From IMG/VR virus record IMGVR_UViG_2875713109_000005: a DNA stretch of 40,475 nucleotides. One strand, written 5' to 3'. Source of the DNA: a virus. Lineage: Duplodnaviria; Heunggongvirae; Uroviricota; Caudoviricetes. The notes under the pieces are model-generated. The model saw nothing but the letters and a program-made list of their open reading frames with translations. It searched no databases and was not told the DNA's origin. The translations under genes and the position numbers were made by a program. This document shows, one piece after another, positions 7,785-29,627 of this stretch. Position 1 is the stretch's first letter; each line of letters opens with the position of its first letter.

Positions 7785-8638
7785 ACGCGCTACTGGAACC
7801 CTTCAGCTATGAATATATGCTCAATGCGATGTGGGTCTCGGCGATGGTCGGCGGTCTCTGCGCTTTCCTGTCATGCTATCTGATGCTAAAAGGCTGGTCG
7901 CTGATTGGCGATGCGCTGTCGCACTCTATTGTCCCGGGTGTTGCGGGGGCATATATGCTGGGGCTTCCGTTTTCTCTGGGAGCCTTCTTTTCCGGCGGAC
8001 TGGCAGCGGGCAGCATGCTGTTTCTTAACCAACTCACTCGCTTAAAAGAAGATGCCATCATCGGCCTGATCTTCTCGTCCTTTTTTGGCCTGGGGCTGTT
8101 TATGGTGTCATTGAACCCGACATCCGTGAACATTCAGACCATCGTCCTGGGCAATATTCTGGCAATCGATCCGGCGGATATCCTGCAACTCACTATCATT
8201 GGCATTCTCTCGATCATCGTGCTTTTTTTCAAATGGAAAGATCTTATGGTGACCTTTTTCGACGAGAATCACGCCCGTGCTATTGGATTGCATCCGGGCA
8301 GATTAAAAATCCTCTTCTTCACCCTGCTGTCGGTTTCGACCGTTGCGGCGCTGCAAACGGTTGGTGCCTTTCTGGTGATCTGTCTGGTGGTGACTCCCGG
8401 TGCAACAGCATGGTTGTTAACCGATCGTTTTCCCCGCCTGCTCATGATTGCTGTAACTATTGGCAGTGTGACCAGTTTCCTCGGCGCGTGGGTCAGTTAC
8501 TTTCTGGACGGCGCGACAGGTGGAATCATCGTGGTGGCGCAGACACTGCTGTTTCTTTTAGCATTTGTCTTTGCGCCCACCCATGGGCTTTTGGCAAATC
8601 GTCGGCGTGCGCATAAAGCGCTGGAGGATCGCTCATGA
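7781..8638 (+). CDS. sitC: Sit ABC transporter permease
   Basis: 285-aa multi-pass membrane protein of the ABC-3 family. It overlaps sitB through ATGA. Confidence 0.9.
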
Positions 8639-9492
8639 TGGCATTATTACTGGAGCCACTGCAGTTCACCTTTATGAGTCACGCACTGCTGATTTCACTG
8701 GTAGTTTCCATACCCTGTGCGCTGCTGTCGGTCTTTCTGGTCCTGAAAAGTTGGGCACTGATGGGTGACGCGATGAGTCATGCGGTTTTTCCTGGCATCG
8801 TGCTTGCCTGGATTCTGGGGTTACCTCTGGCTACAGGGGCATTCGTCGCCGGAGTATTCTGTGCGGTGGCGACGGGATACCTGAAAGACAACAGCCGAAT
8901 CAAGCAAGATACAGTGATGGGGATTGTTTTTTCTGGCATGTTTGCCGCAGGTCTGATCTTGTATATTGCAGTCAAACCAGACGTACATCTTGATCATATT
9001 CTTTTCGGCGACATGCTCGGGATAACCATCGGCGATATAATCCAGACGGTGATTATTGCCGGACTGGTTACACTTGTTATTAGCGTAAAATGGCGGGATT
9101 TTTTGCTGTTCAGCTTTGATTATCAACAGGCGCAGGCAAGCGGTTTGCATACGAGATGGCTGCATTATGGGCTGCTGTGCATGGTCTCCCTGACCATTGT
9201 GGCGACGCTGAAAGCGGTAGGTATCATTCTCTCTATTTCTCTTCTCATTGCGCCTGGTGCCATTGCGGTACTCCTGACACAACGCTTTCATATTGCGCTC
9301 CTGCTGGCGACTGGCATATCGATATTGGTCTCAATGACTGGTGTCTGGCTGTCCTTTTTTATCGACAGCACGCCAGCTCCGACAATTGTTGTCTTATTCG
9401 CGGTCATGTTCATCATGACGTTTACCGTTACCAGCATCAACGCACGCACAAAGGAAAATGCCGAACCACGGGATTTGTTATCATCCGATTAG
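8635..9492 (+). CDS. sitD: Sit ABC transporter permease
   Basis: 285-aa paralog of SitC. It overlaps sitC through ATGA. Confidence 0.9.
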   Translation: MMALLLEPLQFTFMSHALLISLVVSIPCALLSVFLVLKSWALMGDAMSHAVFPGIVLAWILGLPLATGAFVAGVFCAVATGYLKDNSRIKQDTVMGIVFSGMFAAGLILYIAVKPDVHLDHILFGDMLGITIGDIIQTVIIAGLVTLVISVKWRDFLLFSFDYQQAQASGLHTRWLHYGLLCMVSLTIVATLKAVGIILSISLLIAPGAIAVLLTQRFHIALLLATGISILVSMTGVWLSFFIDSTPAPTIVVLFAVMFIMTFTVTSINARTKENAEPRDLLSSD

Positions 9493-9961
9493 CAGAACAC
9501 TCGGCCAGCAACATCCGCTTATTGGCGATGCGCTTGAACGAATAATGCACAGACTTATGATTCTGATAAGTTTTGTTGCCAGAGAGTTGCTGCGGACTGG
9601 ATAGCAAGTAATGTCGATTCTCAGGGGTAGCAAACAGCGCAGTAAAATGAGGGAAGTAGTGGCAAAACATAGAGAAAATTGGGGGGCGAGGGCCAGTGAT
9701 GTAAAAAACCACGCTAAGAGTTTAATTAATTGTTTGTATTGAAGTTTAATGATCTTAACTCACCCTTAAGAATATCTTCCGGTAACGAAGACGTATAATG
9801 CCCCAGCATATTTATATGGCTATGTATCAGCAGCGATAATCTTGCCGGATGCTACTCCTCAGGAGTTTCTCCCGATTTGCGAAGATGTGACAACGCCTCC
9901 TGCATGTAAAGTGTGTTTCACAGCACAACCGCATTGGTCACCAGCCCCAGAGCACCTAGTT

Positions 9962-10112
9962 GATCTTCCTGCCCTTAACGGTAGCTGAAGATGACTGGGC
10001 TGGATGGAAAATCCTGCATGGTGCATTGGGAGAGCAGATAGAATTGGTTGGCGACGATCTGTTTGTGACCAACGTAAAGTATATTCAGCGCGGCATTGAC
10101 GAAAACCTTGCA
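9962..10112 (+). pseudogene. enolase-like gene fragment
   Basis: The translation ...[43 protein letters not shown] resembles the conserved enolase segment (..DW..W......[16 protein letters not shown]...). There is no start codon, and upstream and downstream homology are lost. Confidence 0.45.
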
Positions 10113-10348
10113 ATCCTTTGTGTATCATTAAAATCTTTGTAGTAATCAGATTCCTTTCCATAACTGTCTTCAAGTAACTTTTTTGCTCTTGCAATCCAGT
10201 TATTACCTTTAGCCGAATCAATATATTCCTGGCTTCTGTGACTAAATGCACTTGTTCCCATATATTTTGTCGACATGACAGAATTGTACTCTTGTTCAAG
10301 CACTTCAAATCTTTCAGCTAAGGCCTTCTTCGTCATAGCGCAATCCAA
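10085..10348 (-). CDS. hypothetical protein, probably 3'-truncated
   Basis: 87-aa ORF ([20 protein letters not shown]...). Its last ~9 codons read through the enolase-like fragment, suggesting its native C-terminus is lost. I recognise no family. Confidence 0.35.
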
Positions 10349-10505
10349 ATTATATGCTAATAATACCTGTGAATTTTAATATTCTACCATATCTGGCTTT
10401 CTTCCGTTCACATTGGACATTCAGGTAATTTCGTCCAGTTCTGCTGGCTGTGCTGGAGCTAGCCTGGTATAATTTAACCAGCCATTTCAACAGCGGTGGT
10501 GTCTT

Positions 10506-10700
10506 ATGAACGTCAAGAACATGTTTTACGGTGCCATTCTGGTAAGTGCTGTATGGGCGGTTATTTTGCTCTCATGGTTTGAATCCAGCCTTACCTTAAG
10601 CGATTACCTCAGGTACGAATCGGTAATCCTGATCCCATGCCTGCTGTGGGTTGCTGTTTATGGGTTAGGTAAACGTTACCTCCAAAGAACATCAAACTAG
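10506..10700 (+). CDS. small two-TM membrane protein, unknown function
   Basis: 64 aa with two hydrophobic helices (FYGAILVSAVWAVILLSWF and VILIPCLLWVAVYGL). A GC-rich hairpin follows at 10737-10761. Confidence 0.4.
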   Translation: MNVKNMFYGAILVSAVWAVILLSWFESSLTLSDYLRYESVILIPCLLWVAVYGLGKRYLQRTSN

Positions 10701-10775
10701 CCGCGCCAGCGACTTTTTTTACACCTTCGTTTAATTCCCTGGCTCACCTGGACAGCCAGGGAATTCTGCCCAGCG

Positions 10776-11255
10776 CTACTGGCTTGCTGTGCCAAACTTT
10801 CCGTTGCAGATTTCCTCATTCACAATGGCCTGAAACATGGAAACAGAATTTCTAGCCTTATCCCTCAGTGCATTAATGAGTTCTGTGTCGTGTATTTTGT
10901 TGTAGAAAATGAAAGTAGAAACATCAAACTGGAGTTTAAATGCTGCTTTCCTTATGGCTAAACCTGACGTGATCGTTATCTCATTATGTATGCGAAGATA
11001 GGCAAGATAATCATCGTTATTTGCTTCACACTGCTCATATAAATATTTTTGCATGAGAGATTGAGACAAGGCCAGAAATTCCACATATCGTTTGGTTTTT
11101 ATTTCTTTATCTTTTAATCCCTGTACTGCCGCTTCTTTTTTTAATTCGTGCTTTTGTGTTAGCTTAAGAGTCAGCCACCCCCCTAAAATAGTCAGCAACG
11201 ACCCCAAACCTATTTTTACGGCATTATCAGCCACATCCACCCACTCAGTCGCCAT
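10776..11255 (-). CDS. N-terminally membrane-anchored helical protein, unknown function
   Basis: 159 aa with one TM segment (IGLGSLLTILGGWLTL) followed by a predicted helical soluble domain. AT-rich. Confidence 0.5.
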   Translation of the reverse strand: MATEWVDVADNAVKIGLGSLLTILGGWLTLKLTQKHELKKEAAVQGLKDKEIKTKRYVEFLALSQSLMQKYLYEQCEANNDDYLAYLRIHNEITITSGLAIRKAAFKLQFDVSTFIFYNKIHDTELINALRDKARNSVSMFQAIVNEEICNGKFGTASQ

Positions 11256-12448: not shown

Positions 12449-13951
12449 ATGAAGAAATTTTATCAATTTAGGGATGAACAGCGAAAGGAGCTTGAACAAC
12501 ATGATTTTTATAGTTTGATTTCTTCAGATTGTATAGCGTTGAAAGACAAACTATTATTTGCTCCTGTTATGGCTCATTTCATAATGAACTTCAGAGACAT
12601 GAATAAATGGGTTATCAGGTTTGATAACAATGATAATGAATATAAATCTGTTATAAACGGTGGAACAATCGAGGATGAAACACATTCAAGATTGTTTCTG
12701 GAAGACTGGAGGAAACTATATATAGATGACAAACTTAACTGGAAAGCAAGTGATGTTATATACTGGTTGTTTATTAGTCGAGAAATGGAGTGTTTCCGAA
12801 AATTTGGTATTGATTTTATGAGACTTTGTGTAGATGATGGAGGAGACCCAATACTTCGATATTCTCACTCCGAGTCAGGAGAAACTTGCGGTAATATATT
12901 CTTTTCAAGAATTAGTCCTATTGCTGATCAAGTTGCCAATCATTTGGGAATATCACTCCGTTATTTTGGAACATTTCACCTTAATCTTGAAAATGGACAT
13001 GTATGGAAGTCAGAAGGTGTTTTTGAAAATATAGAGTTGTCACCAGATTCTTATAAGAAAATGGCTACTCTATCAAAGAGAATGTTTGATATATTTGAAG
13101 GAATTCATGACTCTTTTTATAATTACCTGTCCAGTTATGTTCTTAATGGAAGTCATCCGTCATTTTTTGAATCATTACCTGTAGGGAAAAATGTTGCACC
13201 TATATACCCTGAATTTGTGATAGAAAACAAAAGCCATAACGATGGTAGACATATTGAACATATAAACAATTACCTGGAAAAAATATCGAGTCATGAGTTC
13301 TTTAAATGGCTGATTAACACCTCAATAGACCCTCAATTGAAATTGAAAAGTTTCATACCTCTTTGGATTGTTGATATTATGGGGTATAGAGATATTAATA
13401 AATATGTTTTTACATATGAACAGCCTGAATCAGAAAGTGAAAAGATTATAAATGATTATGCATTACACTTGTCAGAGCATAGCCGTTTATTTTATCATGA
13501 CTGGAAGTCACTTCAACTTGATGATATGTTACGTTGGAGTGCCAGTGATACTCTTGAGTTTATTTTTCTTAATTCAGATATGGATATGCATAGAGAAAAT
13601 ATAGTTAAGTTTTCTTTGTTCGGATTAAAACACAGAGATCCTGTTATCAGGTTCTGGTTTATGATGATACTGGAGTTAAGTGGAAAAGAATTTTTCTCTC
13701 ATGTTGGAGATATAGCTTTACAGGTGGAAAGTAAATATAATATTTATCTCCCATATTTATGTGGACGCCATGCAACAGAAAATGAGCATGAAGCATATAA
13801 TAATATGTATGAGCATTTTATGGTAAAGGAACTTAGCCCTGAACAAAGTGATCTAATAATACAAATTACAGACATGGTTATGCGGTCATTATTGAATAAT
13901 TTGGATATCTCATATCGATATGTAGTAAATAATTTATTGGCAGCTCGTTAG
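12449..13951 (+). CDS. 500-aa protein made of two tandem heme-oxygenase-like (putative diiron, PF14518-like) domains; function unknown
   Basis: AGGAG lies 8 nt upstream of the ATG. The gene is very AT-rich. There is an internal duplication: HDFYSLIS...FAPVMAHFIMNFRDMNKWV...ETHSRLFLEDWRKLYIDDKLNWKASDVIYWLF in the N half matches HEFFKWLIN...FIPLWIVDIMGYRDINKYV...SEHSRLFYHDWKSLQLDDMLRWSASDTLEFIF in the C half. The E..H..LF..(D)W..L motif is reminiscent of iron-containing redox enzyme / HO-like folds. Confidence 0.7.
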   Translation: MKKFYQFRDEQRKELEQHDFYSLISSDCIALKDKLLFAPVMAHFIMNFRDMNKWVIRFDNNDNEYKSVINGGTIEDETHSRLFLEDWRKLYIDDKLNWKASDVIYWLFISREMECFRKFGIDFMRLCVDDGGDPILRYSHSESGETCGNIFFSRISPIADQVANHLGISLRYFGTFHLNLENGHVWKSEGVFENIELSPDSYKKMATLSKRMFDIFEGIHDSFYNYLSSYVLNGSHPSFFESLPVGKNVAPIYPEFVIENKSHNDGRHIEHINNYLEKISSHEFFKWLINTSIDPQLKLKSFIPLWIVDIMGYRDINKYVFTYEQPESESEKIINDYALHLSEHSRLFYHDWKSLQLDDMLRWSASDTLEFIFLNSDMDMHRENIVKFSLFGLKHRDPVIRFWFMMILELSGKEFFSHVGDIALQVESKYNIYLPYLCGRHATENEHEAYNNMYEHFMVKELSPEQSDLIIQITDMVMRSLLNNLDISYRYVVNNLLAAR

Positions 13952-14051
13952 AAGAACAGCATTGGTATGACTCTGATGCTCCTTAAAATCCCACTTTTCA
14001 GAGTGGGATTTGTTTAATGCCCAGAACAGGGGGAATTTCCATTCATGCCCA

Positions 14052-14348
14052 GGTGATGCTGCCAACTTACTGATTTAGTGTATGATGGTGTTTTTGAGGT
14101 GCTCCAGTGGCTTCTGTTTCTATCAGCTGTCCCTCCTGTTCAGCTACTGACGGAGTGGTGCGTAACGGCAAAAGCACCGCCGGACATCAGCGCTATCTCT
14201 AATTGAGCGGCATAACCTGAATCTGAGGCAGCACCTGGCACGGCTGGGACGGAAGTCGCTGTCGTTCTCAAAATCGGTGGAGCTGCATGACAAAGTCATC
14301 GGGCATTATCTGAACATAAAACACTATCAATAAGTTGGAGTCATTACC
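14052..14348 (+). mobile_element. internally deleted IS1 (both ends retained, ~297 bp)
   Basis: IRL GGTGATGCTGCCAACTTACTG... runs from 14052 through the first ~149 nt (insA 5'). The sequence then jumps at ~14201 to the last ~148 nt of IS1 (...AATTGAGCGGCATAACCTGAATCTGAGG...AAGTTGGAGTCATTACC, ending at 14348). Confidence 0.85.
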
Positions 14349-14406
14349 CCCCGGACGAGTGGGAATCCATGGTAGGGATTTTTACCGAAATGGAAGAACA
14401 CTATTA

Positions 14407-14444
14407 GGGGGCACCTCAGAAAACGGAAAATAAAGCACGCTAAG
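14407..14444. repeat. Tn21-subgroup 38-bp terminal inverted repeat (mer end)
   Basis: GGGGGCACCTCAGAAAACGGAAAATAAAGCACGCTAAG. The merR stop lies inside it, as in Tn21. Confidence 0.8.
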
Positions 14445-14874
14445 GCATAGCTGACCTTGCCAGGCCTGCTTCGCCCTGTAGTGACGCGATCAACGGGCAG
14501 GAAACATTCCCCTTTCGTGCATGGCAGGCGCACACGAGTTCAGACAGCACGGTTTCCATGCGCGCCAAGTCGGCCATCTTCTCGCGCACGTCCTTGAGCT
14601 TGTGTTCGGCCAGGCTGCTGGCCTCCTCGCAGTGGGTGCCATCGTCGAGCCGCAACAGCTCGGCAATCTCGTCCAGACTGAACCCCAGCCGCTGTGCCGA
14701 TTTCACGAATTTCACCCGAACCACGTCCGCCTCCCCATAGCGGCGGATGCTGCCGTAAGGCTTGTCCGGTTCCCGCAACAGGCCCTTGCGCTGATAGAAG
14801 CGGATTGTCTCCACGTTGACCCCGGCCGCCTTGGCAAAAACGCCAATGGTCAGGTTTTCCAAATTATTTTCCAT
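14440..14874 (-). CDS. merR: Hg(II)-responsive transcriptional regulator MerR
   Basis: 144 codons from ATG 14874 ([33 protein letters not shown]...). The metal-binding Cys residues are present in [12 protein letters not shown]. The ORF-track N-terminal extension is spurious. Confidence 0.95.
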
Positions 14875-14879
14875 ATCGC

Positions 14880-14910
14880 TTGACTCCGTACATGAGTACG
14901 GAAGTAAGGT
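14880..14910 (+). promoter_or_regulatory. merOP: PmerT promoter with the MerR dyad operator
   Basis: -35 TTGACT (14880-14885), dyad TCCGTACATGAGTACGGA (14885-14902) and -10 TAAGGT (14905-14910), with the characteristic 19-bp spacer. Confidence 0.9.
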
Positions 14911-14945
14911 TACGCTATCCAATCCAAATTCAAAAGGGCCAACGT

Positions 14946-15035
14946 ATGTCTGAACCACAAAACGGGCGCGGTGCGCTCTTCGCCGGCGGGCTGGCCGCCA
15001 TTCTTGCATCGACCTGCTGCCTGGGGCCGCTAGTA
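14946..15035 (+). pseudogene. merT: merT 5' fragment truncated by Tn3-family insertion
   Basis: [30 protein letters not shown], after which the Tn3 IR starts at 15036. Confidence 0.9.
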
Positions 15036-15068
15036 GGGGTCTGACGCTCAGTGGAACGAAAACTCACG

Positions 15069-18000
15069 TTAAGCAACGTTTTCTGCCTCTGACGCCTCTT
15101 TTAATGGTCTCAGATGTCCTTTGGTCACCAGTTCTGCCAGCGTGAAGGAATAATGGCCGAGCATATTGATATGTCCGTGGCAAAGCGGGGAGAGGCGTGC
15201 GATATCTTCATCATTCAGTGTTTCACCCTGCGCCCGGAGATGATCCAGGGCTGCCTGCATATAAATAGTGTTCCATAACACGACGGCGTTAGTGACCAGC
15301 CCCAGTGTGCCCAGTTGATCTTCCTGACCGTCGGTATATCGTTTTCTTATCTCACCTTTTTGACCGTGACAGATGGCTCTGGCAACGGCATGGCGACTTT
15401 CTCCCCGATTAAGCTGGGTCAGAATGCGCCGGCGGTAATCTTCATCATCAATATAATTAAGCAGATACAGCGTTTTGTTGATGCGCCCCACTTCAATGAT
15501 TGCCTGAGTCAGTCCGGAAGGACGTTCACTTTTCAGCAATGAACGGACCAGCACTGAAACCTGTACTTTGCCCAGCTTCAGGGAGCCAGCGGTCCGGATC
15601 ATTTCGTCCCACTGAAGGACTATTTTTCGGGGATCTGATTGCCCTCTGGCAATATCATTCAGCACGCCATAGTCGGCATCATGGTCCATTCGCCAGAAAA
15701 CCGAAGCACCGGCATCAGCCAGGCGTGGAGAAAACTGGTATCCCAGCAGCCAGAAAAGGCCAAAGACAAGTTCGCTGGCACCTGCTGTATCGGTCATAAT
15801 TTCGGTTGGATTCAGCCCGGTCTCCTGTTCCAGAAGACCTTCCAGCACAAAGATAGAGTCCCTCAGCGTCCCCGGTATAACGATGCCATGAAAGCCGGAA
15901 TACTGATCGGACACAAAGTTGTACCAGGTGATCCCTCTGTTATTACCAAAGTATTTGCGGTTCGGTCCGGCATTGATTGTTCTGACTGGCGTAACAAAGC
16001 GCATTCCATCTGCAGATGCCACTTCTCCTCCACCCCATATCTGTGCCAGTGGCAGCGTTGCCTGAAAATCAACCAGTCTGGCATTAGCGCTGGTGATAGT
16101 TTCAGCCCGCAGATAGTTCGCTTTTGTCCAGTTCAGCCGGTGTCGGGTCAGTGCAGGAACATTTGATCTGATCAGTGGTTCCAGACCGATATTGCAGGCT
16201 TCAGCCATCAGCACGGCGCTGATGCTGACGGGCAGATCATCAACTCTGGCACTGGCTTCACTAGCATGGAAAAACTCATCAGCAAATCCGGTATGGGCGT
16301 TAATTTCGAGCAGCAACTCCGTTAAATCCACCGGAGGGAGTAGATCACTGATCATTTTGCTCAGTCGTTTCAGACTGTCCGGCTCATCAAGACTGGCGAG
16401 GGGAGAAATTGTCAACCGGGGCTTCGGGCCAGAAACATCGAGTTCGACAGCCTCATTTTCGCAAAGACGTGCAGCAACCTGTCTGTAACGACTATCAAGC
16501 TGATGACCCAGAGATTTTATTGCTTCCTGCGGGTCTGTCGGGTGCCCCAAAGAACGATAAACCTTAATCCGGTTTGCCTGCCAGTCAGCACCCTGTAGTA
16601 ATCTTGCACGAGGATCTCCCCACCGGTTACTGCCGGTAACGTAGACATCCCTCCGCCTCAGACTATCCTGCAGTTTACTGAGAAAGCAGAGCGTGTATCC
16701 CCTGCGGGTGATATGTTTTTCCTTGTTAATCACCAGCCGTTTCCATGACCGACTGATAATTTCCGTTGGTGCGTCGTCAAAAAACTGCCGCCGTGAGCTG
16801 AACTCCCGGCTGAGGTAGTCACAGGCATTCAGAGTGGTAACCCCGGCAGGTGCGGATGAAAATTTAACGGTATTCAGCAGATGGGGCAGGAAACGACGAA
16901 CGCGCCCGTACTGCTCCACCATTTCTTCATGAAAATTATCGTCTGAGGGCCGGGCAATTTCACGGACAAGCGTGATGATTTCAGCCAGCTTTTGCCTTGG
17001 GATGTAGCTGAACACCTCAGCACGAATCGATTCGTCCGGTGTTTCTTCTTTCAGCAGGTACGAACATGCGCTGGCGAGCGCCAATGCAGATTTATCCAGA
17101 TCCTTCAGCGAGCGGAGCCGTTTTTTCTGCCCAATCTTTCTGGCGTCACGGATGATAACGGCCAGCATGGCGTCCAGAACGTCCAATGCATCATCCAGCG
17201 CCAGCGTTTCCCATGCAAGGACAAAGGCAACCAGAACCGCCATCCTTTTCTGCGGTGACATCCTGGCAATATTGAACACCGAAGTCATACCAGCATAACG
17301 TGCGAGATTTTTCAGGCGCACAGCCGGGAGTGTACTCAGGTTTTCAGCATGCAGGCCAAAATCGTTCAGAGTTTTCCAGCGTTCAATTGCTTCATTAAAC
17401 GCCGGACCACTGATGGTCACAGGGCCCTTTTTCAGTGATTCCAGTAAAGACAGGCGGCTGCAATCAGTTGGCCCCAGCAGCATCTCCAGCTGTGAACGCT
17501 GTTCGGCTGACGGTATCAGTGCCAGTTTGTTCCACAGGCGCAACGTCGCCTTTTCCCTTACCTCTGAAATCAACCGGGTCAGCGTAGTGGCTCCGGGGAG
17601 AATAATACGATGTTGCATAAGCCACCCTGTCGCCAGATCGAAAAGCAGGCCAGGACGTTCGTTGCTTATCCAGCTCCGGGTATATAAAAGACGGGTAAGG
17701 CGAAATGTCCAGGGCCAGGCAAATTCACGATACTGATAGTGCTGACGTATCAGCGCTGCATGCTCACGGCGGGTATTTTCCCTCTGACCGTATTCTGCAA
17801 GAACGGTGATATCACGAATCCCGAGCTGTCTGGCGGTAAAATGCCGGACGCCGGAAGGAATATGATTCATATCGGTGAGGAAGGTGCCCAGAAAACGGAC
17901 ACATCCAATTTGCAGGGCAATGCCCAGACGGTTGTGATCACCTCTGCTTTTTCCGATAAATTCCTTGTCTGCTTCATCAAGGTGAAAATATCGTGCCAGC

Positions 18001-18074
18001 TGAAGCTCATCCGGTTCACCGGTGAATCTGCCATAGCTTTCAGTCTGCTCAGTGGTCAGAAAGTCAACGGGCAT
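15069..18074 (-). CDS. tnpA: Tn3 transposase
   Basis: 1001 codons from ATG 18074 (MPVDFLTTEQTESYGRF...). The ORF track extends 53 codons upstream through res, which is spurious. Confidence 0.95.
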   Translation of the reverse strand: MPVDFLTTEQTESYGRFTGEPDELQLARYFHLDEADKEFIGKSRGDHNRLGIALQIGCVRFLGTFLTDMNHIPSGVRHFTARQLGIRDITVLAEYGQRENTRREHAALIRQHYQYREFAWPWTFRLTRLLYTRSWISNERPGLLFDLATGWLMQHRIILPGATTLTRLISEVREKATLRLWNKLALIPSAEQRSQLEMLLGPTDCSRLSLLESLKKGPVTISGPAFNEAIERWKTLNDFGLHAENLSTLPAVRLKNLARYAGMTSVFNIARMSPQKRMAVLVAFVLAWETLALDDALDVLDAMLAVIIRDARKIGQKKRLRSLKDLDKSALALASACSYLLKEETPDESIRAEVFSYIPRQKLAEIITLVREIARPSDDNFHEEMVEQYGRVRRFLPHLLNTVKFSSAPAGVTTLNACDYLSREFSSRRQFFDDAPTEIISRSWKRLVINKEKHITRRGYTLCFLSKLQDSLRRRDVYVTGSNRWGDPRARLLQGADWQANRIKVYRSLGHPTDPQEAIKSLGHQLDSRYRQVAARLCENEAVELDVSGPKPRLTISPLASLDEPDSLKRLSKMISDLLPPVDLTELLLEINAHTGFADEFFHASEASARVDDLPVSISAVLMAEACNIGLEPLIRSNVPALTRHRLNWTKANYLRAETITSANARLVDFQATLPLAQIWGGGEVASADGMRFVTPVRTINAGPNRKYFGNNRGITWYNFVSDQYSGFHGIVIPGTLRDSIFVLEGLLEQETGLNPTEIMTDTAGASELVFGLFWLLGYQFSPRLADAGASVFWRMDHDADYGVLNDIARGQSDPRKIVLQWDEMIRTAGSLKLGKVQVSVLVRSLLKSERPSGLTQAIIEVGRINKTLYLLNYIDDEDYRRRILTQLNRGESRHAVARAICHGQKGEIRKRYTDGQEDQLGTLGLVTNAVVLWNTIYMQAALDHLRAQGETLNDEDIARLSPLCHGHINMLGHYSFTLAELVTKGHLRPLKEASEAENVA

Positions 18075-18795
<721 letters not shown>

Positions 18796-18907
18796 TACGC
18801 CTATTTTTATAGGTTAATGTCATGATAATAATGGTTTCTTAGACGTCAGGTGGCACTTTTCGGGGAAATGTGCGCGGAACCCCTATTTGTTTATTTTTCT
18901 AAATACA

Positions 18908-18936
18908 TTCAAATATGTATCCGCTCATGAGACAAT
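18908..18936 (+). promoter_or_regulatory. bla P3-type promoter
   Basis: -35 TTCAAA (18908-18913), a 17-bp spacer, and -10 GACAAT (18931-18936). Confidence 0.7.
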
Positions 18937-18965
18937 AACCCTGGTAAATGCTTCAATAATATTGA

Positions 18966-19838
<873 letters not shown>

Positions 19839-19985: not shown

Positions 19986-20602
19986 CTGAACAATGTGACG
20001 GACTCAGAAGCCTTCCCGGGTCTTATCCGGCAGACTCACAGAAAAATCAGGGCAGCATCGGCAGATGGCGCTTACGACACCCGGCTCTGTCACGATGAAC
20101 TGCGGCGTAAGAAAATCAGCGCCCTTATCCCACCCCGAAAAGGTGCGGGTTACTGGCCCGGTGAATATGCAGACCGTAACCGTGCAGTGGCTAATCAGCG
20201 AATGACCGGGAGTAATGCGCGGTGGAAATGGACAACAGATTACAACCGTCGCTCGATAGCGGAAACGGCGATGTACCGGGTGGGTTACTGGCCCGGTGAA
20301 TATGCAGACCGTAACCGTGCAGTGGCTAATCAGCGAATGACCGGGAGTAATGCGCGGTGGAAATGGACAACAGATTACAACCGTCGCTCGATAGCGGAAA
20401 CGGCGATGTACCGGGTAAAACAGCTGTTCGGAGGTTCACTGACACTGCGTGACTACGATGGTCAGGTTGCAGAGGCTATGGCCCTGGTACGAGCGCTGAA
20501 CAAAATGACGAAAGCAGGTATGCCTGAAAGCGTGCGTATTGCCTGAAAACACAACCCGCTACGGGGGAGACTTACCCGAAATCTGATTTATTCAACAAAG
20601 CC
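19986..20602 (+). mobile_element. IS903 3' fragment with a 135-bp internal tandem duplication
   Basis: It starts mid-transposase (..LNNVTDSEAFPGL..) directly at the Tn3 IR. 20147-20281 is repeated at 20282-20416. The terminal IR GATTTATTCAACAAAGCC ends at 20602. Confidence 0.85.
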
Positions 20603-23175
20603 ACGGGAGACTCGCAGTTTGGACACTTTATGTTAATTGAAGACATAGGCATCAAAGACAAATAGGTCCAATACTCGCCATTCTTAATTAATCGTGTATT
20701 GCATGTACCACAGTGGGTATACACGGTAAAGTGTGTACACTCATTGCACCGATACCAACGCTTTTGATTATTTGAACTCATTGATTTCGTTACATCAACT
20801 ACTTTTTCAGACCCACAAGAAACACAAAAATTCACCGCATGAGTATCATCCGATGCTCCTCGAAAAGATGTATTGTCTTCAATGCCGTACTGTAGAAACA
20901 TCCCTAGCATACGTTGGATTTCATCAAGATAGCGTTGCGACTTCATTGGGTTTGCACATACTGCACCATAGTTTGTAGCTTGGCGTTGATGGCGTGCAGG
21001 TTCCCAATCAAACATGGATAGTTCGCCCAAATAACTGTCTTTCGCCCATTCCTGTGGAGAGACGACTTTCTCAACCGCATCTAACACGGGGTGAAGAACA
21101 AACACACTGTTCTCTTGGCATTCGCTATAATCTTTGCCGTTGTAAAGTTCATGGATAACCCCACCGATCCCACCTCTTTGCTTGAGATAGGCAGCAGAAT
21201 AGTACTTTGCATCGACGACTAACCGCTTTGAAATCTGGTTACCACTTTTGGTAATCGCTTCTACATCCAAAACAAAATCAGGGCGCTTACCATTTGCTAA
21301 GAACGGTTCGTATTGCAGAGTGATAGCTCTTGAAACACTTGGGTTGAAAAACTGAATGCTGATTTGTTCTTCATTGCCTTGAATATTCGCAATCAATTTT
21401 CGTTTCCAGTTGTCCTCTGGCTGATAGCGGAATGCCTGAGTCAGCACTTTGATGATTTGCAGCAAACACCAGCGTTCATAAAGTAGTGGCATGTTGACTA
21501 ACCCAATCGCTTCGATCTTCTCCAGCGAAAGCAAAATGTCCTCATCGGCCAAGCCAATCTGCTCTTTTAACTTTTTAAAACCCGAGTGAACCGCTTGATA
21601 GGCAGGGTTTTGCACAAAAGTCATAGAGTTAGGAAAGGTGCTTTTACTTTTGACTTTGCATTGACGCCATTCTTTTTCTATTTGCTGGAAAGGTTTCAGT
21701 TTTGGCTCAAGCGCTTTGTGTACGATTCCCACCTTTTCATGTTCAGTTGCGAAATAACCCAAGCGCTTATTGATGGTAGCACGTTCTTTTTCCTGTTCAG
21801 CGAGTTCATCTGTTGTCAGCTTCGCTTGCCAATCATTTTTACTTAGAGCAATGCCTTTATCACGCAATTTAGTGAAATTTTCTTGCTCTCTTTGAATAGA
21901 ACGAGACTCTGGTAATACGCAAATTCGTGAGATGTATTCTGGATACAAGACCACCGCTTTTCCCCTTCTTAACGGTAAAGGGATCTTCGCTTCTATCTCA
22001 TAGTCGCTATAAGCTTTAAACAAGCTGGCGTAATGATCTCTAGAATTAAAAATGGTATATCCATCTGGCTCAAACTGTTGCCAGTCATCATTTTGCGATA
22101 GTTTAATTTTAGCCCACCACTCATTCTCAGAGCCTGTTGCTTTTTCCAATCTTAGGTAACCTTTTTCAGAGTAACTTCGAGACAGATTAACGTTGATTTT
22201 CGCTAACTGTTCCGATAACTCGGCATTGATTACTTCTGTATCAAAGCGCTTTTTAAGTCGTTCTAAGTCTTTAACTACTAGGTCACGGTTGATAATACGA
22301 TAGTCTTTTAAACTGTCTAAACGCTCATTGAGCTTTTCAATAGCCCCAGAAAAACGACTCTTTTTGCTCTCAGCCACCTTAACCAATTGCTTTACAATGC
22401 TCAGCGTGCTCGAAACCACATACAGCACATACTGGTTTTCTGGCACGTTGTAACTCGGCTCAGATGCGCGGCTCGTTAAATGCTTACGCGAACCTTTGGT
22501 ACAAATCTCCATAAATGTACGTGGAACAGGACGTACTTCTTTTGCTGGCTTTAACGCTTGAATTTCTTTCAGTTCAACTTTGGGCTTTTTGAGGATGGTT
22601 TGTGCATTGCTAAGAATTGATGCGACTAATGACAGCGCTTCTTGGCCGATGGCTGCAACCTGTGAATTTTTAGCGTCGCCCGTGATATGACTATTCTCAT
22701 CGAGGATCAGCTCCCACAGGTCCGCTTTAAAATCTGACAGGTAACGTGAAAGATCCGATTTGGTCTGTTCGGAGATATCAATATCAAGCTTTAGTGTCGA
22801 GTTACCAATAACAAACGTGATCTGACCAGCCGTTCGCCTCGCTTCACTGCGCCACACCCGTTGTTTTGCGTCCCAATGAGCAGGCTCAACCCACCACACA
22901 GCATTAGATGCGGGATCGGTTATCGACTCTAACTGCTTTCTATCACCATTAGGCATGACAATGTAAGGCGGAGACTGATCACCCTGCTTAGTTTTTATCG
23001 CAAGTTGAGCAAAACGTAGCTCATCGACCTTAGGGTAGATGGTGGTGTGTGCGGAAAATGCATTGTTCCCCGTCTGCTCAAGCTTTAGCGAGTACTCCGA
23101 CTCGCTAACACTGACTAAGGTTTGCTTATCGTGCCATTTGGTCTCGATAAACTTGATAACGAATGGAGCTTCCAT
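20572..23175 (-). CDS. large McrC/DUF2357-like PD-(D/E)xK nuclease-family protein with C-terminal double zinc ribbon; 3' end clipped by IS903
   Basis: 867-aa ORF. LLYERWCLLQI is followed by RPDFVLD(633)...VVD(655)AK(657)YY. Four CxxC pairs are present (C784/787, C810/813, C822/825, C851/854). From residue 859 onward the codons and the stop are IS903 IR sequence. The ATG lies 2 nt after the stop of the upstream AAA+ gene. Confidence 0.8.
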   Translation of the reverse strand: MEAPFVIKFIETKWHDKQTLVSVSESEYSLKLEQTGNNAFSAHTTIYPKVDELRFAQLAIKTKQGDQSPPYIVMPNGDRKQLESITDPASNAVWWVEPAHWDAKQRVWRSEARRTAGQITFVIGNSTLKLDIDISEQTKSDLSRYLSDFKADLWELILDENSHITGDAKNSQVAAIGQEALSLVASILSNAQTILKKPKVELKEIQALKPAKEVRPVPRTFMEICTKGSRKHLTSRASEPSYNVPENQYVLYVVSSTLSIVKQLVKVAESKKSRFSGAIEKLNERLDSLKDYRIINRDLVVKDLERLKKRFDTEVINAELSEQLAKINVNLSRSYSEKGYLRLEKATGSENEWWAKIKLSQNDDWQQFEPDGYTIFNSRDHYASLFKAYSDYEIEAKIPLPLRRGKAVVLYPEYISRICVLPESRSIQREQENFTKLRDKGIALSKNDWQAKLTTDELAEQEKERATINKRLGYFATEHEKVGIVHKALEPKLKPFQQIEKEWRQCKVKSKSTFPNSMTFVQNPAYQAVHSGFKKLKEQIGLADEDILLSLEKIEAIGLVNMPLLYERWCLLQIIKVLTQAFRYQPEDNWKRKLIANIQGNEEQISIQFFNPSVSRAITLQYEPFLANGKRPDFVLDVEAITKSGNQISKRLVVDAKYYSAAYLKQRGGIGGVIHELYNGKDYSECQENSVFVLHPVLDAVEKVVSPQEWAKDSYLGELSMFDWEPARHQRQATNYGAVCANPMKSQRYLDEIQRMLGMFLQYGIEDNTSFRGASDDTHAVNFCVSCGSEKVVDVTKSMSSNNQKRWYRCNECTHFTVYTHCGTCNTRLIKNGEYWTYLSLMPMSSINIKCPNCESPVALLNKSDFG

Positions 23176-23177
23176 GA

Positions 23178-25352
23178 TTACGCCCAGTAGTTCACAACGC
23201 CATCATTCGATTCAGCCGTTTTAACCAAACGCTCTACCGATTTGGTGCAAGAAAACTCCGCCGTTATCTCTGCTTGATTATCCAACAGCGACTCAAGGCG
23301 AGGCAAGAATACACGGCTAACAAGCTCAGCTTTACTGTAATCGCCTACTTGCTTATCACCATCAAATGTGAATTTTGGTAGCACCTTATGAACGATAAAG
23401 TTGTTGATGGCCAGAGACTTATTGTCGTTTACATCGCTAAACAAACTTACGTAGTTAAGCCCCTGTCGAATGGTACGCATACCAAACTCCACGCCAAGCG
23501 GATCAAAGACATCTCGGTTTAAGGTCGTAAACAACTCGCAGAATTCATTCGTACGTTCAAATTTCGGATAAGGGGTACGCTCACCAAGCTCTTCAATATC
23601 AAACACTAGCGGTAAAGTAACGTCGTCTAGCCCGTAAGAGTCAATCTCATCAAAAATCGCATCCCAGTCGGTCAGCAAAGGACTCTTAAACTTCATCACA
23701 TGCGCGCGGTCAAGAATTTTTGGTGAGAGGTAATGGGTTGTTTCGTCGATGTTGATAGCACCAATAATTCTTACGTTCGCTGGAATCGTGATTGACGAAG
23801 GCGTGCCGAGAACACCTGCCAACATGCGTCTGATATCACCGTGGTATTTAATCAGTGAGTCTTTATCGCTAAAGCCAAACGCGCGCTTCATTTCAGCGTT
23901 AATTTCTTCATCTTGCATGAGCGCAACGAAGTCCACGATGCCATTTTTGCTGAACTTTTCTTGCGCGTTAGAAATGACAGAAACAACCCCTTTTAGCTCG
24001 GCAAGAACGTGTGCAGCTTCATCATCCGAGTAAAGTTGAATGGTCGGTTGCTCGTTACGCTCCTCTAGCTTAGAAAGAAAGTCGGCAAAGTAATATTCCA
24101 CTCGGGCAAGGTTCATTTCGTCTAAACAGATGAAGTATGGGATATCTGGGTTTTGCTTAGCCTCGATCAATGCCTCAAGAAATGGTGTCACCAAATATTT
24201 CTTCTCTAGGGGATTGTAATAACCCAGCAAATCTTCTGAACTAGTCCAGTTAGGCTTGACCGGAATGATCTTCGATACCCCACCAATAGCCTTGGCAAAC
24301 GACTGAACCAGGTTTGTTTTGCCTGAGCCTGAGTCCCCCGCCAGAATGATGAGATCATGGGTGCGAATAAGCGTTAGGAAGTTCTCGATAATATGGCGCG
24401 GGTACAAGATATCTCGTTCTTTTAGGTGCGCTTGAATGTATGAAACGGCATCACTGTAGTTAGAATCAAAAGCTTGCGAAAAAGAGATATGCTCGTCACG
24501 ATCCTTATTAGACAAGGTGCTTCCAACAAAAAGGTCAAAATCGTCATCATCCAAAAACTCAAAGCTTTTTAGGAATCCAGCCTTACTTTCGACATAAGCT
24601 TTTAAGCGTTCAATTTTTTTAGACATTGTTTCTTCTGCCTTCTTTTGCAATGCGATTTTGTGTTGCCATTCAGAGTGTTCAACTTCCAGCTTTTGGGCTT
24701 TCGCAATTGCCTGAGAGAGAACGTTATTTTTTTGATTTAGGTCATCTTGGACATGTTGAAGCTGATCTTTATATGACGATATCTGAGCCTTCAATGAGGA
24801 TTCTTCGCGCTCAAATTCTGCGTTAAGTGCAGTCACTTCGCTGTCAATTCTTGATTGAACGTTCTGTAAATGCTGCTTGTAAACAGCTTCATCAAGGAAG
24901 ATGTTTTCATCACCTTTGATGATGTCATTCGCCGTATATTCAGGAAGTTTGATAAGTCGACGGACTGAACTTACTACCACATTGCATTCGAACGGGTTTT
25001 CATGTTTTTCGCGTTCAGATTGAGGCGCTAAAGCAAGCTCGCATGAGACAAAACTCCCATCTTCCAAGCCAAATAACTCTTCGACACTTTTGAAGGAAAC
25101 AAAAACACCTTTGTCCATCGTCAAACGAACATTAATGGGATATTCAGTATCCAGTCCCGTTTGGAGGGATTTAATCTCTAAAAGACGGGTTGGGAGCTTT
25201 CTGCTATCGGAATCTGGGCCATTTAGAATCTTGCCCCAAACTGCCAGTTTTCCATTCGTAATCCCCCAACTCTCACAAAGGCATTGATAAAGCTCTTCAT
25301 CAGAGAACCCTTTAACCTCTTCAAGATTGTAGATAACTTGTTCTAAGGCCAT
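23178..25352 (-). CDS. McrB-like (AAA_5 branch) AAA+ NTPase with N-terminal unknown domain and coiled coil
   Basis: 724 aa. Walker A GDSGSGKT (aa 339-346, nt 24315-24338), Walker B FICLDEMNLARVEYYFADFL (aa 407-426), IIGAINIDETTHYLSPKILDRAHV (aa 529-552), and a heptad-rich segment at aa ~155-257. Confidence 0.8.
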   Translation of the reverse strand: MALEQVIYNLEEVKGFSDEELYQCLCESWGITNGKLAVWGKILNGPDSDSRKLPTRLLEIKSLQTGLDTEYPINVRLTMDKGVFVSFKSVEELFGLEDGSFVSCELALAPQSEREKHENPFECNVVVSSVRRLIKLPEYTANDIIKGDENIFLDEAVYKQHLQNVQSRIDSEVTALNAEFEREESSLKAQISSYKDQLQHVQDDLNQKNNVLSQAIAKAQKLEVEHSEWQHKIALQKKAEETMSKKIERLKAYVESKAGFLKSFEFLDDDDFDLFVGSTLSNKDRDEHISFSQAFDSNYSDAVSYIQAHLKERDILYPRHIIENFLTLIRTHDLIILAGDSGSGKTNLVQSFAKAIGGVSKIIPVKPNWTSSEDLLGYYNPLEKKYLVTPFLEALIEAKQNPDIPYFICLDEMNLARVEYYFADFLSKLEERNEQPTIQLYSDDEAAHVLAELKGVVSVISNAQEKFSKNGIVDFVALMQDEEINAEMKRAFGFSDKDSLIKYHGDIRRMLAGVLGTPSSITIPANVRIIGAINIDETTHYLSPKILDRAHVMKFKSPLLTDWDAIFDEIDSYGLDDVTLPLVFDIEELGERTPYPKFERTNEFCELFTTLNRDVFDPLGVEFGMRTIRQGLNYVSLFSDVNDNKSLAINNFIVHKVLPKFTFDGDKQVGDYSKAELVSRVFLPRLESLLDNQAEITAEFSCTKSVERLVKTAESNDGVVNYWA

Positions 25353-26797: not shown

Positions 26798-26873
26798 ATG
26801 GGCACACCACGTTTTACCCCTGAATTTAAGGAAGAAGCTGTCCGCCAAATCACCGAGCGGGGCTATTCCATCT
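26798..26873 (+). pseudogene. 5' remnant of a second IS3-family orfA, cut by IS903
   Basis: MGTPRFTPEFKEEAVRQITERGYSI, after which the IS903 IR begins at 26874. Confidence 0.5.
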
Positions 26874-28260
26874 GGCTTTGTTGAATAAATCAGATTTCGG
26901 GTAAGTCTCCCCCGTAGCGGGTTGTGTTTTCAGGCAATACGCACGCTTTCAGGCATACCTGCTTTCGTCATTTTGTTCAGCGCTCGTACCAGGGCCATAG
27001 CCTCCGCAACCTGACCATCGTTACCCGGTACATCGCCGTTTCCGCTATCGAGCGACGGTTGTAATCTGTTGTCCATTTCCACCGCGCATTACTCCCGGTC
27101 ATTCGCTGATTAGCCACTGCACGGTTACGGTCTGCATATTCACCGGGCCAGTAACCCGCACCTTTTCGGGGAGGGATAAGNGCGCTGATTTTCTTACGCC
27201 GCAGTTCATCGTGACAGAGCCGGGTGTCGTAAGCGCCGTCTGCCGATGCTGCCCTGATTTTTCTGTGAGTCTGCCGGATAAGACCCGGGAAGGCTTCTGA
27301 GTCCGTCACATTGTTCAGCGACAGGTCTGCACAGATGATTTCATGTGTGTTGCTGTCAACTGCCAGATGCAACTTTCGCCATATACGACGGCGTTCCTGG
27401 CCATGCTTTTTGACTTTCCACTCGCCTTCACCAAAGACCTTCAGCCCGGTGGAATCAATCACCAGATGCGCGATTTCACCCCGGGTGAACGTTTTGAAAC
27501 TGACGTTAACCGACTTTGCCCGCCTGCTGACACAGCTGTAATCCGGGCANGATGATTTCATGTGTGTTGCTGTCAACTGCCAGATGCAACTTTCGCCATA
27601 TACGACGGCGTTCCTGGCCATGCTTTTTGACTTTCCACTCGCCTTCACCAAAGACCTTCAGCCCGGTGGAATCAATCACCAGATGCGCGATTTCACCCCG
27701 GGTGAACGTTTTGAAACTGACGTTAACCGACTTTGCCCGCCTGCTGACACAGCTGTAATCCGGGCAGCGNANCGGAACNTTCATCAGNGNAAAAATGGAA
27801 TCAATAAAGCCCTGCGCAGCGCGCAGGGTCAGCCTGAATACGCGTTTAATGACCAGCACAGTCGTGATGGCAAGGTCAGAATAGCGCTGGGGCCTTCCCC
27901 GTGATGAAGGCGTTGCCGACTCATACCAGGCCTGAATCGCCCCATCATCCAGCCAGAAAGTGAGGGAGCCACGGTTGATGAGAGCTTTGTTGTAGGTGGA
28001 CCAGTTGGTGATTCTGAACTTTTGCTTTGCCACGGAATGGTCTGTGTTGTCGGGAGGATGCGTGATCTGATCCTTCAACTCAGCAAAAGTTCGATTTATT
28101 NNNNNNNNNNNNNNNNNNNNNCGGTTGATGAGAGCTTTGTTGTAGGTGGACCAGTTGGTGATTCTGAACTTTTGCTTTGCCACGGAATGGTCTGTGTTGT
28201 CGGGAGGATGCGTGATCTGATCCTTCAACTCAGCAAAAGTTCGATTTATTCAACAAAGCC
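26874..28260 (-). mobile_element. IS903 copy (both IRs present) with deletion, duplication and gap anomalies
   Basis: GGCTTTGTTGAATAAATC at 26874 and its inverse ending at 28260. Relative to the 4729 copy there is a 37-bp deletion after 27016. 27334-27549 is repeated at 27551-27766. A 21-N gap (28101-28121) is flanked by a 129-bp duplication. Several n bases are present. Corrected length is 1020+37 = 1057 bp, the canonical IS903 size. Confidence 0.85.
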
Positions 28261-28741
28261 CCAACCAATTAGCAATTCGCTTTTCGCATGTGCTAAAACA
28301 CCACTCTGGGTGTGCATCATTTAGCAATTCAGCCATTTTGCGTTTGGTCATCCCCCGCCCCTCATACCGTTGCCGAAGGACGCTAATCAATCCTGGATGC
28401 TCTGCCAGCACCTCACTTATGACCCGATCAATACATAACGCCTCTGCATCAGTACAATGCGCCAGCCAGCTCTTTTGCTTACCGTTAATCATATCCCGCA
28501 AAAAAGCCTCAAGTTCAGACTTGTTCAGACCTGCTTTTTTCATCCTCCGGAGCGCCTCGTTAATTGCCGTTTTTGTCAGCTTTTTAGAGGCCAACAACTG
28601 GTTGAACATATTCCCCGTCTTACCGCCGCCAATATACGACCAGCGCCCCCACATGCGCAGTTTTCCCTGAATCCAGACACTTTCCAGCGTGGTGAGACGA
28701 AGGTGTTCCCCGCTTTTGCCTGTATTTGTTGGGTAAATCAT
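28261..28741 (-). pseudogene. 5' part (160 codons) of the Q-type late antiterminator gene, interrupted by IS903
   Basis: ATG 28741 overlaps the upstream stop (ATGA). The product starts MIYPTNTGKSGEHLRLTTLESVWIQGKLRMWGRWSY.... It occupies the position between the nin-like genes and the lysis cassette. The frame continues at 4719-4658. The family assignment rests on position and the RMWGRW motif and is not verified. Confidence 0.6.
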
Positions 28742-29028
28742 AAATAACCTTCCTTTCTCCAGATTTCTTGCGTGCGAAAAACACCTTCTGCATGCATCAG
28801 GCGTAAATCTTCTTTGGTGTAATCGCTTGTTTTTACCCGCCCGTCGATTAAATCGTGGCATGAGCTACAGGCAATCGCCGCCTGCATATCGTGTGGTTTT
28901 GTCGCTGTTCCGCACGTTCCCGCCAGTCGGTAATGCGCCAGCACAGACGTTTCCGGATCGTGATTGCAGTAGCCAAGAATTCTGACGGTGCACATCCGCC
29001 CCCGCGCCGCTTTACGTAAATCCACCAT
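28738..29028 (-). CDS. YbcO-like (DUF1364) prophage protein
   Basis: 96 aa, MVDLRKAARGRMCTVRILGYCNHDPETSVLAHYRLAG.CGT.TKP.D..A..ACS.CHD. It closely parallels DLP12 YbcO as I recall it. Confidence 0.7.
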   Translation of the reverse strand: MVDLRKAARGRMCTVRILGYCNHDPETSVLAHYRLAGTCGTATKPHDMQAAIACSSCHDLIDGRVKTSDYTKEDLRLMHAEGVFRTQEIWRKEGYL

Positions 29029-29627
29029 TACGCAAACTCCAGCAGCTGCGCGGCCACATTTTCGACTTGTTCCGGAGAGGAAAATTTACGGAACAGAATC
29101 CAGTTCCACAGCACATTCAGAACAGATTTATAAACCTGCTGAAACTCGGTTTCGTCCATATTCGCAAAAGCGATAGATTTTGCCCGACGCCCGCGGCTAC
29201 CGTCCGGATAAAAATGTTCGGTGTAAAATCCAGCCTGAATGGTTACCCACTCGCGAAAAGCCTCAAACGACTTTAGCAATGCCGTATCCCGGGTTCTGCG
29301 TGTCGCAACTGTATTCAGATATTGCTCTGCGGCTTCGCTCAGAGCTGGCGTATGTTCCCGGCCTACTGATTCACATAGGTAATCAACGAATCCTGAAACC
29401 AGCTTTCGTTCGCGAGGCGTGATCGCCCCACCGACCGGAGTCCAGTAATCGAATCCCAGTTGCAGGAGTTTGAAAAAACGCTTGTGGAATGCGTAGTTAC
29501 GCACACGCTTAAAGTCTGCGTGTATCCACTCGCCTATTTTGATTTGATGCAAAAAATCGCAACTCTCCGGCGTCGCCGGGAGAAGTAGTCCAGAAGAGGT
29601 TTGTTTGACCAGTTGTATATGCGCCAT
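29028..29627 (-). CDS. DUF1367 (YdfU-like) prophage protein
   Basis: 199 aa. It occupies the nin-region position upstream of ybcO-like and Q, with overlapping start and stop. The family call is from memory of Qin YdfU. Confidence 0.55.
   Translation of the reverse strand: MAHIQLVKQTSSGLLLPATPESCDFLHQIKIGEWIHADFKRVRNYAFHKRFFKLLQLGFDYWTPVGGAITPRERKLVSGFVDYLCESVGREHTPALSEAAEQYLNTVATRRTRDTALLKSFEAFREWVTIQAGFYTEHFYPDGSRGRRAKSIAFANMDETEFQQVYKSVLNVLWNWILFRKFSSPEQVENVAAQLLEFA

Follow-up and report, generated by a model that had tools for sequence, protein, structure and literature searches.

What does the long minus-strand gene at positions 20572-23175 of the viral record IMGVR_UViG_2875713109_000005 (Caudoviricetes) encode, and is its unusual architecture new? 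The stretch analysed, referred to below as the window, is 40,475 nucleotides long. A sequence-only reading had described the product as a giant McrC-like subunit, in which a PD-(D/E)xK nuclease core is preceded by a long region with coiled-coil stretches and followed by a double zinc ribbon. Our analysis revealed that the gene is very probably cnuC and its product the nuclease subunit, derived from McrC, of a CoCoNuT (coiled-coil nuclease tandem) of Type I-A. Its architecture had already been published in 2024, as that of Type I-A CnuC with a near-identical Escherichia coli example, and the pair of CnuC with its partner CnuB is already known as a predicted anti-phage candidate system.

Assignment of the gene pair to the Type I-A CoCoNuTs

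The two genes lie in the window as follows.

20572-23175, minus strand: cnuC open reading frame, native 858 residues plus a 9-residue tail encoded by the insertion sequence (IS) IS903
23178-25352, minus strand: cnuB, McrB-like NxD GTPase of 724 residues (PADLOC PDC-M26A, Pfam AAA_5)

According to the list of open reading frames (ORFs), the cnuC product has 867 residues and 98.4 kDa. cnuB lies directly upstream, and only 2 nt separate its stop codon from the start of cnuC (TAA-TC-ATG). The classification of such pairs was given by Bell, Sahakyan, Makarova, Wolf and Koonin (eLife 2024, PMC11090510), who described an NxD branch of McrBC and named its coiled-coil clade CoCoNuT. The CnuB signature NxD is a one-residue deletion of the McrB NxxD and is usually followed by E or D. 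A Type I-A system has no genes besides cnuB and cnuC, and what sets it apart from the other types is a helical insert that lies between Walker B and NxD in CnuB. Its CnuB further has a long coiled coil fused N-terminally to the GTPase domain and a CSD-like OB fold at the N-terminus. Its CnuC begins with IG and McrC_N (DUF2357), continues with a CSD-like OB between two coiled coils, and ends with PD-(D/E)xK and zinc ribbon. The window pair has the NxD motif, the predicted long N-terminal helix and the predicted helical insert in CnuB, the same predicted domain order in CnuC, and a two-gene content without CnuA, CnuH, CnuE or TerY-P genes, the last being seen from its neighbourhood (the window pair is bounded by IS elements, and neighbours differ among the Shewanella woodyi, Marinomonas and Klebsiella loci).

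The motifs of CnuB are Walker A GDSGSGKT (339-346), Walker B DEMN (411-414) and NIDE (534-537); none of the four NIDE residues (N534, I535, D536, E537) varies among 37 homologues. E. coli McrB differs in having NTAD, in the same IIG..N context, and in lacking both the long helix and the 69-residue insert. The distance from Walker B to this motif is 123 residues in CnuB (D411-N534) and 54 in E. coli McrB. In the AlphaFold2 model of CnuB the insert (about 444-514) consists of helices 444-470, 475-479, 482-492 and 500-514, with a predicted local distance difference test score (pLDDT) of 47-66, and residues 155-263 form one helix of 109 residues. The heptad score of residues 160-225 was 0.78, above the 95th percentile of shuffled sequences (0.68), and weak matches to coiled-coil families were obtained in Pfam and PADLOC profile scans. 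Residues 1-135 were modelled as a beta-rich domain; a Foldseek search with the whole chain gave AAA+ matches only. By sequence, hhalign connected CnuB with E. coli McrB from the Walker A to the Walker B region (E = 3.4e-6), and a phmmer search against PDB also returned McrB, outranked by a spurious match to ketol-acid reductoisomerase.

The published Type I-A exemplar is the E. coli locus RG71_00010/RG71_00015 of CP010237.1 (APL73566.1/APL73567.1), of which APL73566.1 was modelled in Figure 5 of PMC11090510. The part of APL73566.1 that was compared (399 residues) is 93% identical to the window CnuC over 398 positions, and this exemplar CnuC is entered with its CnuB partner in the authors' Type I-A sheet. 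The exemplar is the same two-gene operon, and its CnuB is alike in the NxD motif, the coiled coil and the helical insert. There are also differences: the window allele departs from the exemplar-like allele of E. coli PCN061 in the head cassettes of both proteins, and the window CnuC, unlike the exemplar, carries a 9-residue C-terminal extension encoded by IS903. Both window proteins also match the PADLOC candidate PDC-M26 (A: PDLC04547; B: PDLC04548, 04549 and 04550) from end to end, with PDC-M26A covering residues 1-724 of CnuB (1107 bits) and PDC-M26B residues 1-857 of CnuC (all 857 model positions, 1428 bits). The PADLOC entry comes without description or mechanism, and our literature search found no papers mentioning PDC-M26; NCBIfam holds no CnuC model.

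The McrC side of the assignment rests on gene order and on the nuclease. As in McrBC of E. coli K-12 (EcoKMcrBC; PDB 6HZ4 and 6UT6) and Thermococcus gammatolerans (6UT5 and 6UT7), the gene with the PD-(D/E)xK motif is coupled to, and directly downstream of, a gene for an McrB-type AAA+ GTPase. CnuC is called McrC-like because of this coupling, because its PD-(D/E)xK residues are invariant, and because it shares the local motif VDAKYY with E. coli K-12 McrC. The latter has 348 residues and is without the Ig-like domain, stalk, OB domain and CxxC motifs, all of which are seen or predicted in the window CnuC. The earlier description of an McrC-like subunit with added modules that canonical McrC lacks is supported by the partner gene, the VDAKYY motif, and the conservation of the stalk and eight cysteines.

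Conservation was assessed in 42 homologues (37-91% identical to the window protein) and in 106 representatives of full length (22-49%). When 1.84 billion cluster representatives were searched with a profile, 401 family members were found at E <= 0.001. Pfam PDDEXK_7 matches residues 565-660 above its gathering score (E = 1.1e-7), inside the core proposed earlier at about 565-700. D633, D655 and K657, as well as the cysteine pairs C784/C787, C810/C813, C822/C825 and C851/C854, were found at the residues and nucleotides where the sequence-only reading had placed them. It had named loss of the triad or of the cysteine pairs among homologues as the outcome that would count against it, and the reverse was observed. 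The triad is retained in 42/42 homologues, and E567, D633, D655 and K657 in 106/106 representatives (D655-A-K657 in the window protein). As for the cysteines, C784, C787, C810, C813 and C822 are present in 42/42 homologues, C851 and C854 in 41/42 and C825 in 37/42; among the 106 representatives each cysteine is kept in 102-106 (C784, C787, C810, C813, C851 and C854 in all, C822 in 105 and C825 in 102).

Several results weigh against the Type I-A assignment. The link to canonical McrC is weak by sequence: hhalign gave no match between the 106-sequence CnuC profile and E. coli McrC, and Pfam DUF2357 matches only residues 218-290 of CnuC, below threshold (18.1 bits, gathering score 23.3; E = 0.0017). 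Foldseek found no PDB match to the CnuC model at E <= 0.001; its weak matches nevertheless point in the direction of the assignment, with McrC of T. gammatolerans on top (E = 0.015) and OB and Ig-like macroglobulin folds next. An hmmsearch of PDB sequences with the CnuC profile gave nothing meaningful (best POP8, E = 0.12). Confidence in the CnuB model is moderate, with a pLDDT of 73 that drops to 47-66 over the insert, and the best Foldseek matches of this model are dynein, MCM and RavA-type AAA+ proteins, not McrB. Our literature search found no experimental evidence on Type I-A, only data on a Type II-like Pseudomonas system.

That relative has a related CnuB/CnuC core. Type II GTPases form a branch inside Type I-A (PMC11090510), and Type II loci, such as the seven-gene Obs locus of Pseudomonas aeruginosa (bioRxiv 10.64898/2026.04.06.716636), add a CnuH helicase, the HEPN protein CnuE and TerY-P genes, none of which is found in Type I-A. 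According to PMC11090510, the nuclease of the Type II CnuC is inactivated, its CSD domain is missing and its coiled coils are shorter. Experimental protection, against RNA phages and also against one DNA phage, was shown for the seven-gene Type II-like Pseudomonas locus and not for Type I-A (bioRxiv 10.64898/2026.04.06.716636).

A quite different identity is suggested by several NCBI, UniRef and JGI records, whose titles, 'EstP' or 'pyrethroid hydrolase', would make CnuC the pyrethroid-hydrolysing esterase EstP. The name goes back to a 73-kDa EstP of Klebsiella sp. ZD112 (2006), which is cited in reviews; CnuC has a mass of 98.4 kDa. The CnuC sequence contains no GxSxG or GDS motif, the residues that never vary in it make up a PD-(D/E)xK nuclease site and the cysteine set, cnuC is directly downstream of the McrB-like GTPase gene at every locus examined, and the current RefSeq name is 'nuclease domain-containing protein'. 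With no serine-hydrolase motif, the wrong size and nuclease-type invariant residues, the esterase reading deserves next to no credence and was rejected. The label is almost certainly wrong, probably a mis-annotation that spread from the 2006 report, and should not be propagated. It also stands on the plasmid records CP082454.1 and OW849263.1.

Domain anatomy and native end of CnuC

An AlphaFold2 model of CnuC was built from the 42-sequence alignment (mean pLDDT 79.3, predicted template modelling score 0.67). Together with the conserved motifs it divides the native protein as follows.

22777-23175, minus strand: residues 1-133, Ig-like beta-sandwich (13 strands in the model)
22453-22761, minus strand: residues 139-241, N-terminal part of the McrC-N (DUF2357) helical region with a beta-hairpin (model)
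22195-22443, minus strand: residues 245-327, outgoing helical arm of the stalk (modelled helices 245-288 and 297-327)
21916-22167, minus strand: residues 337-420, OB/CSD-like beta domain at the stalk tip (model, pLDDT about 88-93)
21661-21903, minus strand: residues 425-505, returning helical arm of the stalk (modelled helices 425-446 and 455-505)
21496-21624, minus strand: residues 518-560, C-terminal part of the DUF2357-like helical region (modelled helices 518-522, 524-540 and 545-555)
20890-21492, minus strand: residues 562-762, PD-(D/E)xK nuclease of alpha/beta fold (E567, D633, D655, K657)
20602-20838, minus strand: residues 780-858, eight-cysteine module, a putative zinc ribbon (CVSC 784, CNEC 810, CGTC 822, CPNC 851)

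All six segments of CnuC are present at similar sizes in 106/106 representatives. Foldseek matched residues 1-133 to macroglobulin domains of complement C3 and to Ig-type domains of filamin (probability <= 0.98, with weak E-values), and the N-terminal domain of CnuC is labelled 'IG' in PMC11090510. The following segment (139-241) contains, in the model, two helices (139-158, 178-196) and two strands (201-210, 232-241). For residues 337-420 the matches were OB folds, those of Teb1 OB-B (probability 0.98) and Stn1-Ten1. Within residues 518-560, the motif FPNSMTFVQNP is invariant or nearly so in the 42 homologues.

In the model, the two long helical stretches are the arms of a hairpin stalk with the beta domain at its tip, and this hairpin is placed as an insertion within the DUF2357-like region. 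The sequence-only reading had taken the roughly 560 residues before the nuclease as one region with coiled-coil, heptad-like stretches at about 265-335 and 425-505. Long modelled helices do lie there, as the arms of the stalk, and the region as a whole is modelled as five modules, including the beta domains 1-133 and 337-420 that this reading did not see. The heptad pattern itself is only marginal: our home-made score reached 0.65 (residues 261-292), whereas the 95th percentile of shuffles was 0.68. The coiled-coil claim for CnuC is therefore based on the modelled helices and the published description, and there is more support for the predicted helices than for heptads in the strict sense.

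The C-terminal module was modelled with short strands (792-794, 806-810, 816-821 and 827-832), and residues 837-847 are of low confidence. Pfam zinc-ribbon matches to CnuC were sub-threshold only. The eight conserved cysteines suffice for two zinc sites, which makes the module a putative double zinc ribbon. One divergent homologue among the 42 lacks C825, C851 and C854 together. Such a joint loss weakly suggests that C822/C825 and C851/C854 form one site, and C784/C787 and C810/C813 the other. PMC11090510 gives three zinc-binding CPxC motifs, or two in Type II, while in the clade of the window protein there are four CxxC motifs and CPxC is found in the last one only; this is a small difference in description and not a new feature. 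The earlier suggestion that the module adds a sensing function seems less likely. Because the module is strongly conserved while the OB tip is variable, it would more likely be a structural or nucleic-acid clamp beside the nuclease than a specificity element.

The sequence-only reading had also put the end of the gene at 20603. The ORF ends at 20572, and 20603 is the final native base of cnuC, abutting the IS903 terminal inverted repeat GGCTTTGTTGAATAAATC, which occupies 20585-20602 on the 3' side of the gene. Comparison with an uninterrupted copy on the Klebsiella plasmid NZ_CP061390.1, which ends CCC GTA TGA (protein tail ...CPNCESPV), revealed that IS903 sits exactly on the native stop codon, with the final Val codon retained (GTA to GTG). 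Since the insertion took out the stop, translation continues nine codons into IS903.

20572-20601, minus strand: nine added codons (ALLNKSDFG) and stop, read from the IS903 terminal inverted repeat

The added tail starts four residues past the last zinc-binding-type cysteine. Without it, the window CnuC is identical at 857/858 positions to WP_004182109.1 (858 residues). The same 867-residue form exists in RefSeq as WP_032494871.1, on the Citrobacter freundii IncR plasmid NZ_CP124816.1. Replacement of the cnuC stop codon by IS903, with the 9-residue extension that results, is a detail new here; for annotation, the 867-residue form should be taken as an IS903 read-through of the 858-residue protein.

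Variable heads and the proposed mechanism

The window allele and the allele of the E. coli PCN061 plasmid (locus extract 5997-10789), whose CnuC matches the compared part of the exemplar APL73566.1 almost exactly, were compared in blocks of 40 residues. The regions of low block identity are given below.

24573-25232, minus strand: variable head of CnuB, residues 41-260
21736-22215, minus strand: variable head of CnuC, residues 321-480

In CnuB, identity per block falls to 12-35% over residues 41-240, is 60% at 241-280, and reaches 92-100% over residues 321-724 (98-100% in nearly all blocks). In CnuC, the blocks of residues 321-480 have 55-70% identity and the remainder 88-100%, with 92-100% in the blocks flanking the OB-like domain. 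The heads vary in the same way when the ten CnuC sequences closest to the window protein, and likewise the nine closest of CnuB, are compared. As far as these alignments go, hypervariable heads between alleles otherwise 98-100% identical are a new detail, and no such variability is described in the available portion of PMC11090510. The pattern suggests cassette exchange or diversifying selection acting on recognition modules, and heads that vary so strongly on a conserved chassis would fit a role in target recognition. The OB-like domains, being hypervariable where the zinc module is strongly conserved, would most likely be the sensing modules. A stronger version, in which the two heads are exchangeable, co-varying specificity cassettes on a nearly invariant GTPase/nuclease chassis, is offered tentatively, as an idea with somewhat more chances against it than for it. 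If it is true, plasmid-borne alleles would differ in the phage molecule recognised, like swapped hsdS subunits or McrB N-terminal domains, and the cassettes would give an experimental handle on what CoCoNuT systems sense.

By analogy with the solved McrBC complexes, CnuB would form GTP-bound hexameric rings, the DUF2357 region of CnuC would insert into the ring and stimulate GTP hydrolysis, and two CnuB-CnuC assemblies would pair their nuclease domains to cut the target. Judged from domain content and variability, the target would be chosen not through a modified-DNA reader as in E. coli McrB, but through two domains carried on long helices, the beta-rich one at the N-terminus of CnuB and the OB-like one at the stalk tip of CnuC. 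The most likely ligand of these heads would be nucleic acid in single-stranded form (RNA of the phage, or single-stranded DNA), or possibly a phage protein. Since single-stranded nucleic acid is what OB/CSD-like modules typically bind, RNA or single-stranded DNA may be the target, and not modified double-stranded DNA.

The pair could instead act as a conventional McrBC-type Type IV restriction system, which recognises modified phage DNA and cuts it as a double strand, with coiled coils and OB domains as mere scaffolding. The intact and invariant PD-(D/E)xK site with its McrC-like VDAKYY, the McrB-like GTPase partner and the position of the pair next to Type I restriction-modification (R-M) genes would all suit this explanation, and PD-(D/E)xK enzymes are usually DNases (PMC11090510). 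Pfam and NCBIfam scans, however, detected no known modified-base reader domain in CnuB. Its N-terminal domain is small and beta-rich, and the equivalent domain is classed in PMC11090510 as CSD-like, typically a single-strand binder; moreover, the GTPase motif is the NxD variant, never characterised according to the same paper. On balance we regard conventional Type IV restriction as somewhat unlikely. Another explanation is abortive infection or addiction, in which a triggered nuclease would degrade host nucleic acids (e.g. tRNA, rRNA or tmRNA), halt growth and stabilise the plasmid. For CoCoNuTs as a whole, PMC11090510 proposes RNA targeting backed up by programmed cell death or dormancy, the genes are mostly plasmid-borne, and toxin-antitoxin genes are adjacent in chromosomal islands. 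The argument for RNA targeting, however, is built mainly on HEPN RNases, which Type I-A lacks; toxicity of Type I-A is a conjecture by analogy, and plasmid location with flanking IS elements would explain the spread without addiction. We therefore consider abortive infection or addiction rather improbable for this pair. Recognition of the target by the variable OB-like heads of CnuB and CnuC, followed by cleavage by the CnuC nuclease, is the mechanism we prefer, and for annotation the head cassettes are the regions most likely to set the target range.

Distribution and genomic context

cnuC was found in 229 of 72,556 plasmids, 185 of them from Klebsiella; in 161, at least 80% of its length is present. 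Among 5,426 complete E. coli genomes it occurs in 27, and 23 of its 28 places are on plasmids. The neighbourhood differs between loci: the S. woodyi pair (locus extract 1-5856) stands directly after a Type I R-M operon (hsdR, hsdM, hsdS) on the same strand, the Marinomonas pair lies within an integrase/toxin-antitoxin island, and the pair on the Klebsiella plasmid NZ_CP061390.1 (locus extract 12586-16968) is beside a Type I Zorya system (zorA, zorB, zorC), with one IS903 between them. In the window, the pair is flanked by the following elements.

19986-20602, unstranded: partial IS903 at the 3' end of cnuC; its inverted-repeat arms pair with 26873-27318, and it contains an exact 135-bp tandem duplication
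26874-28260, unstranded: second IS903 in inverted orientation, with inverted repeats at 26874 and 28243-28260, N runs and tandem duplications

The second IS903 lies beyond an IS3-family element upstream of cnuB, and the inverted IS903 pair thus brackets the IS3-family element, cnuB and cnuC as a composite-transposon-like module. The order IS903/IS3/cnuB/cnuC/IS903 is also found on the C. freundii IncR plasmid NZ_CP124816.1, and several plasmids of E. coli and Salmonella have the bracketed module at 100% identity.

Exact tandem duplications of 135, 216 and 129 nt were found in the IS903 copies (20147-20416, 27334-27766 and 27972-28250). Two of them are split by a single N or an N run, and they give rise to odd ORFs with internally repeated peptides. 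N runs occur in the window at 2298-2318 and 28101-28121, with further Ns at 5073, 5445, 27181, 27550 and 27770-27790. The duplications look like assembly or scaffolding artefacts and not biology. Past the second IS903, phage-like ORFs lie at 28250-29627, namely a Cys/His-rich ORF of 96 residues and one of 199 residues, which may resemble lambdoid nin-region proteins; if they are nin-like, the window might be something other than a plain plasmid backbone.

On the other side of the pair, the interval 14440-19838 contains a MerR-like ORF, a Tn3-family transposase (1054 residues), a resolvase and blaTEM-1 (286 residues), the last of which is annotated as TEM-1 on NZ_CP124816.1. With blaTEM-1, the transposase and the resolvase nearby, the defence module sits in a mosaic of resistance genes and IS elements. 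Resistance plasmids that circulate widely in Klebsiella, E. coli, Salmonella and Citrobacter carry this cnuBC allele, which makes it a clinically relevant and easily cloned example of the predicted Type I-A system.

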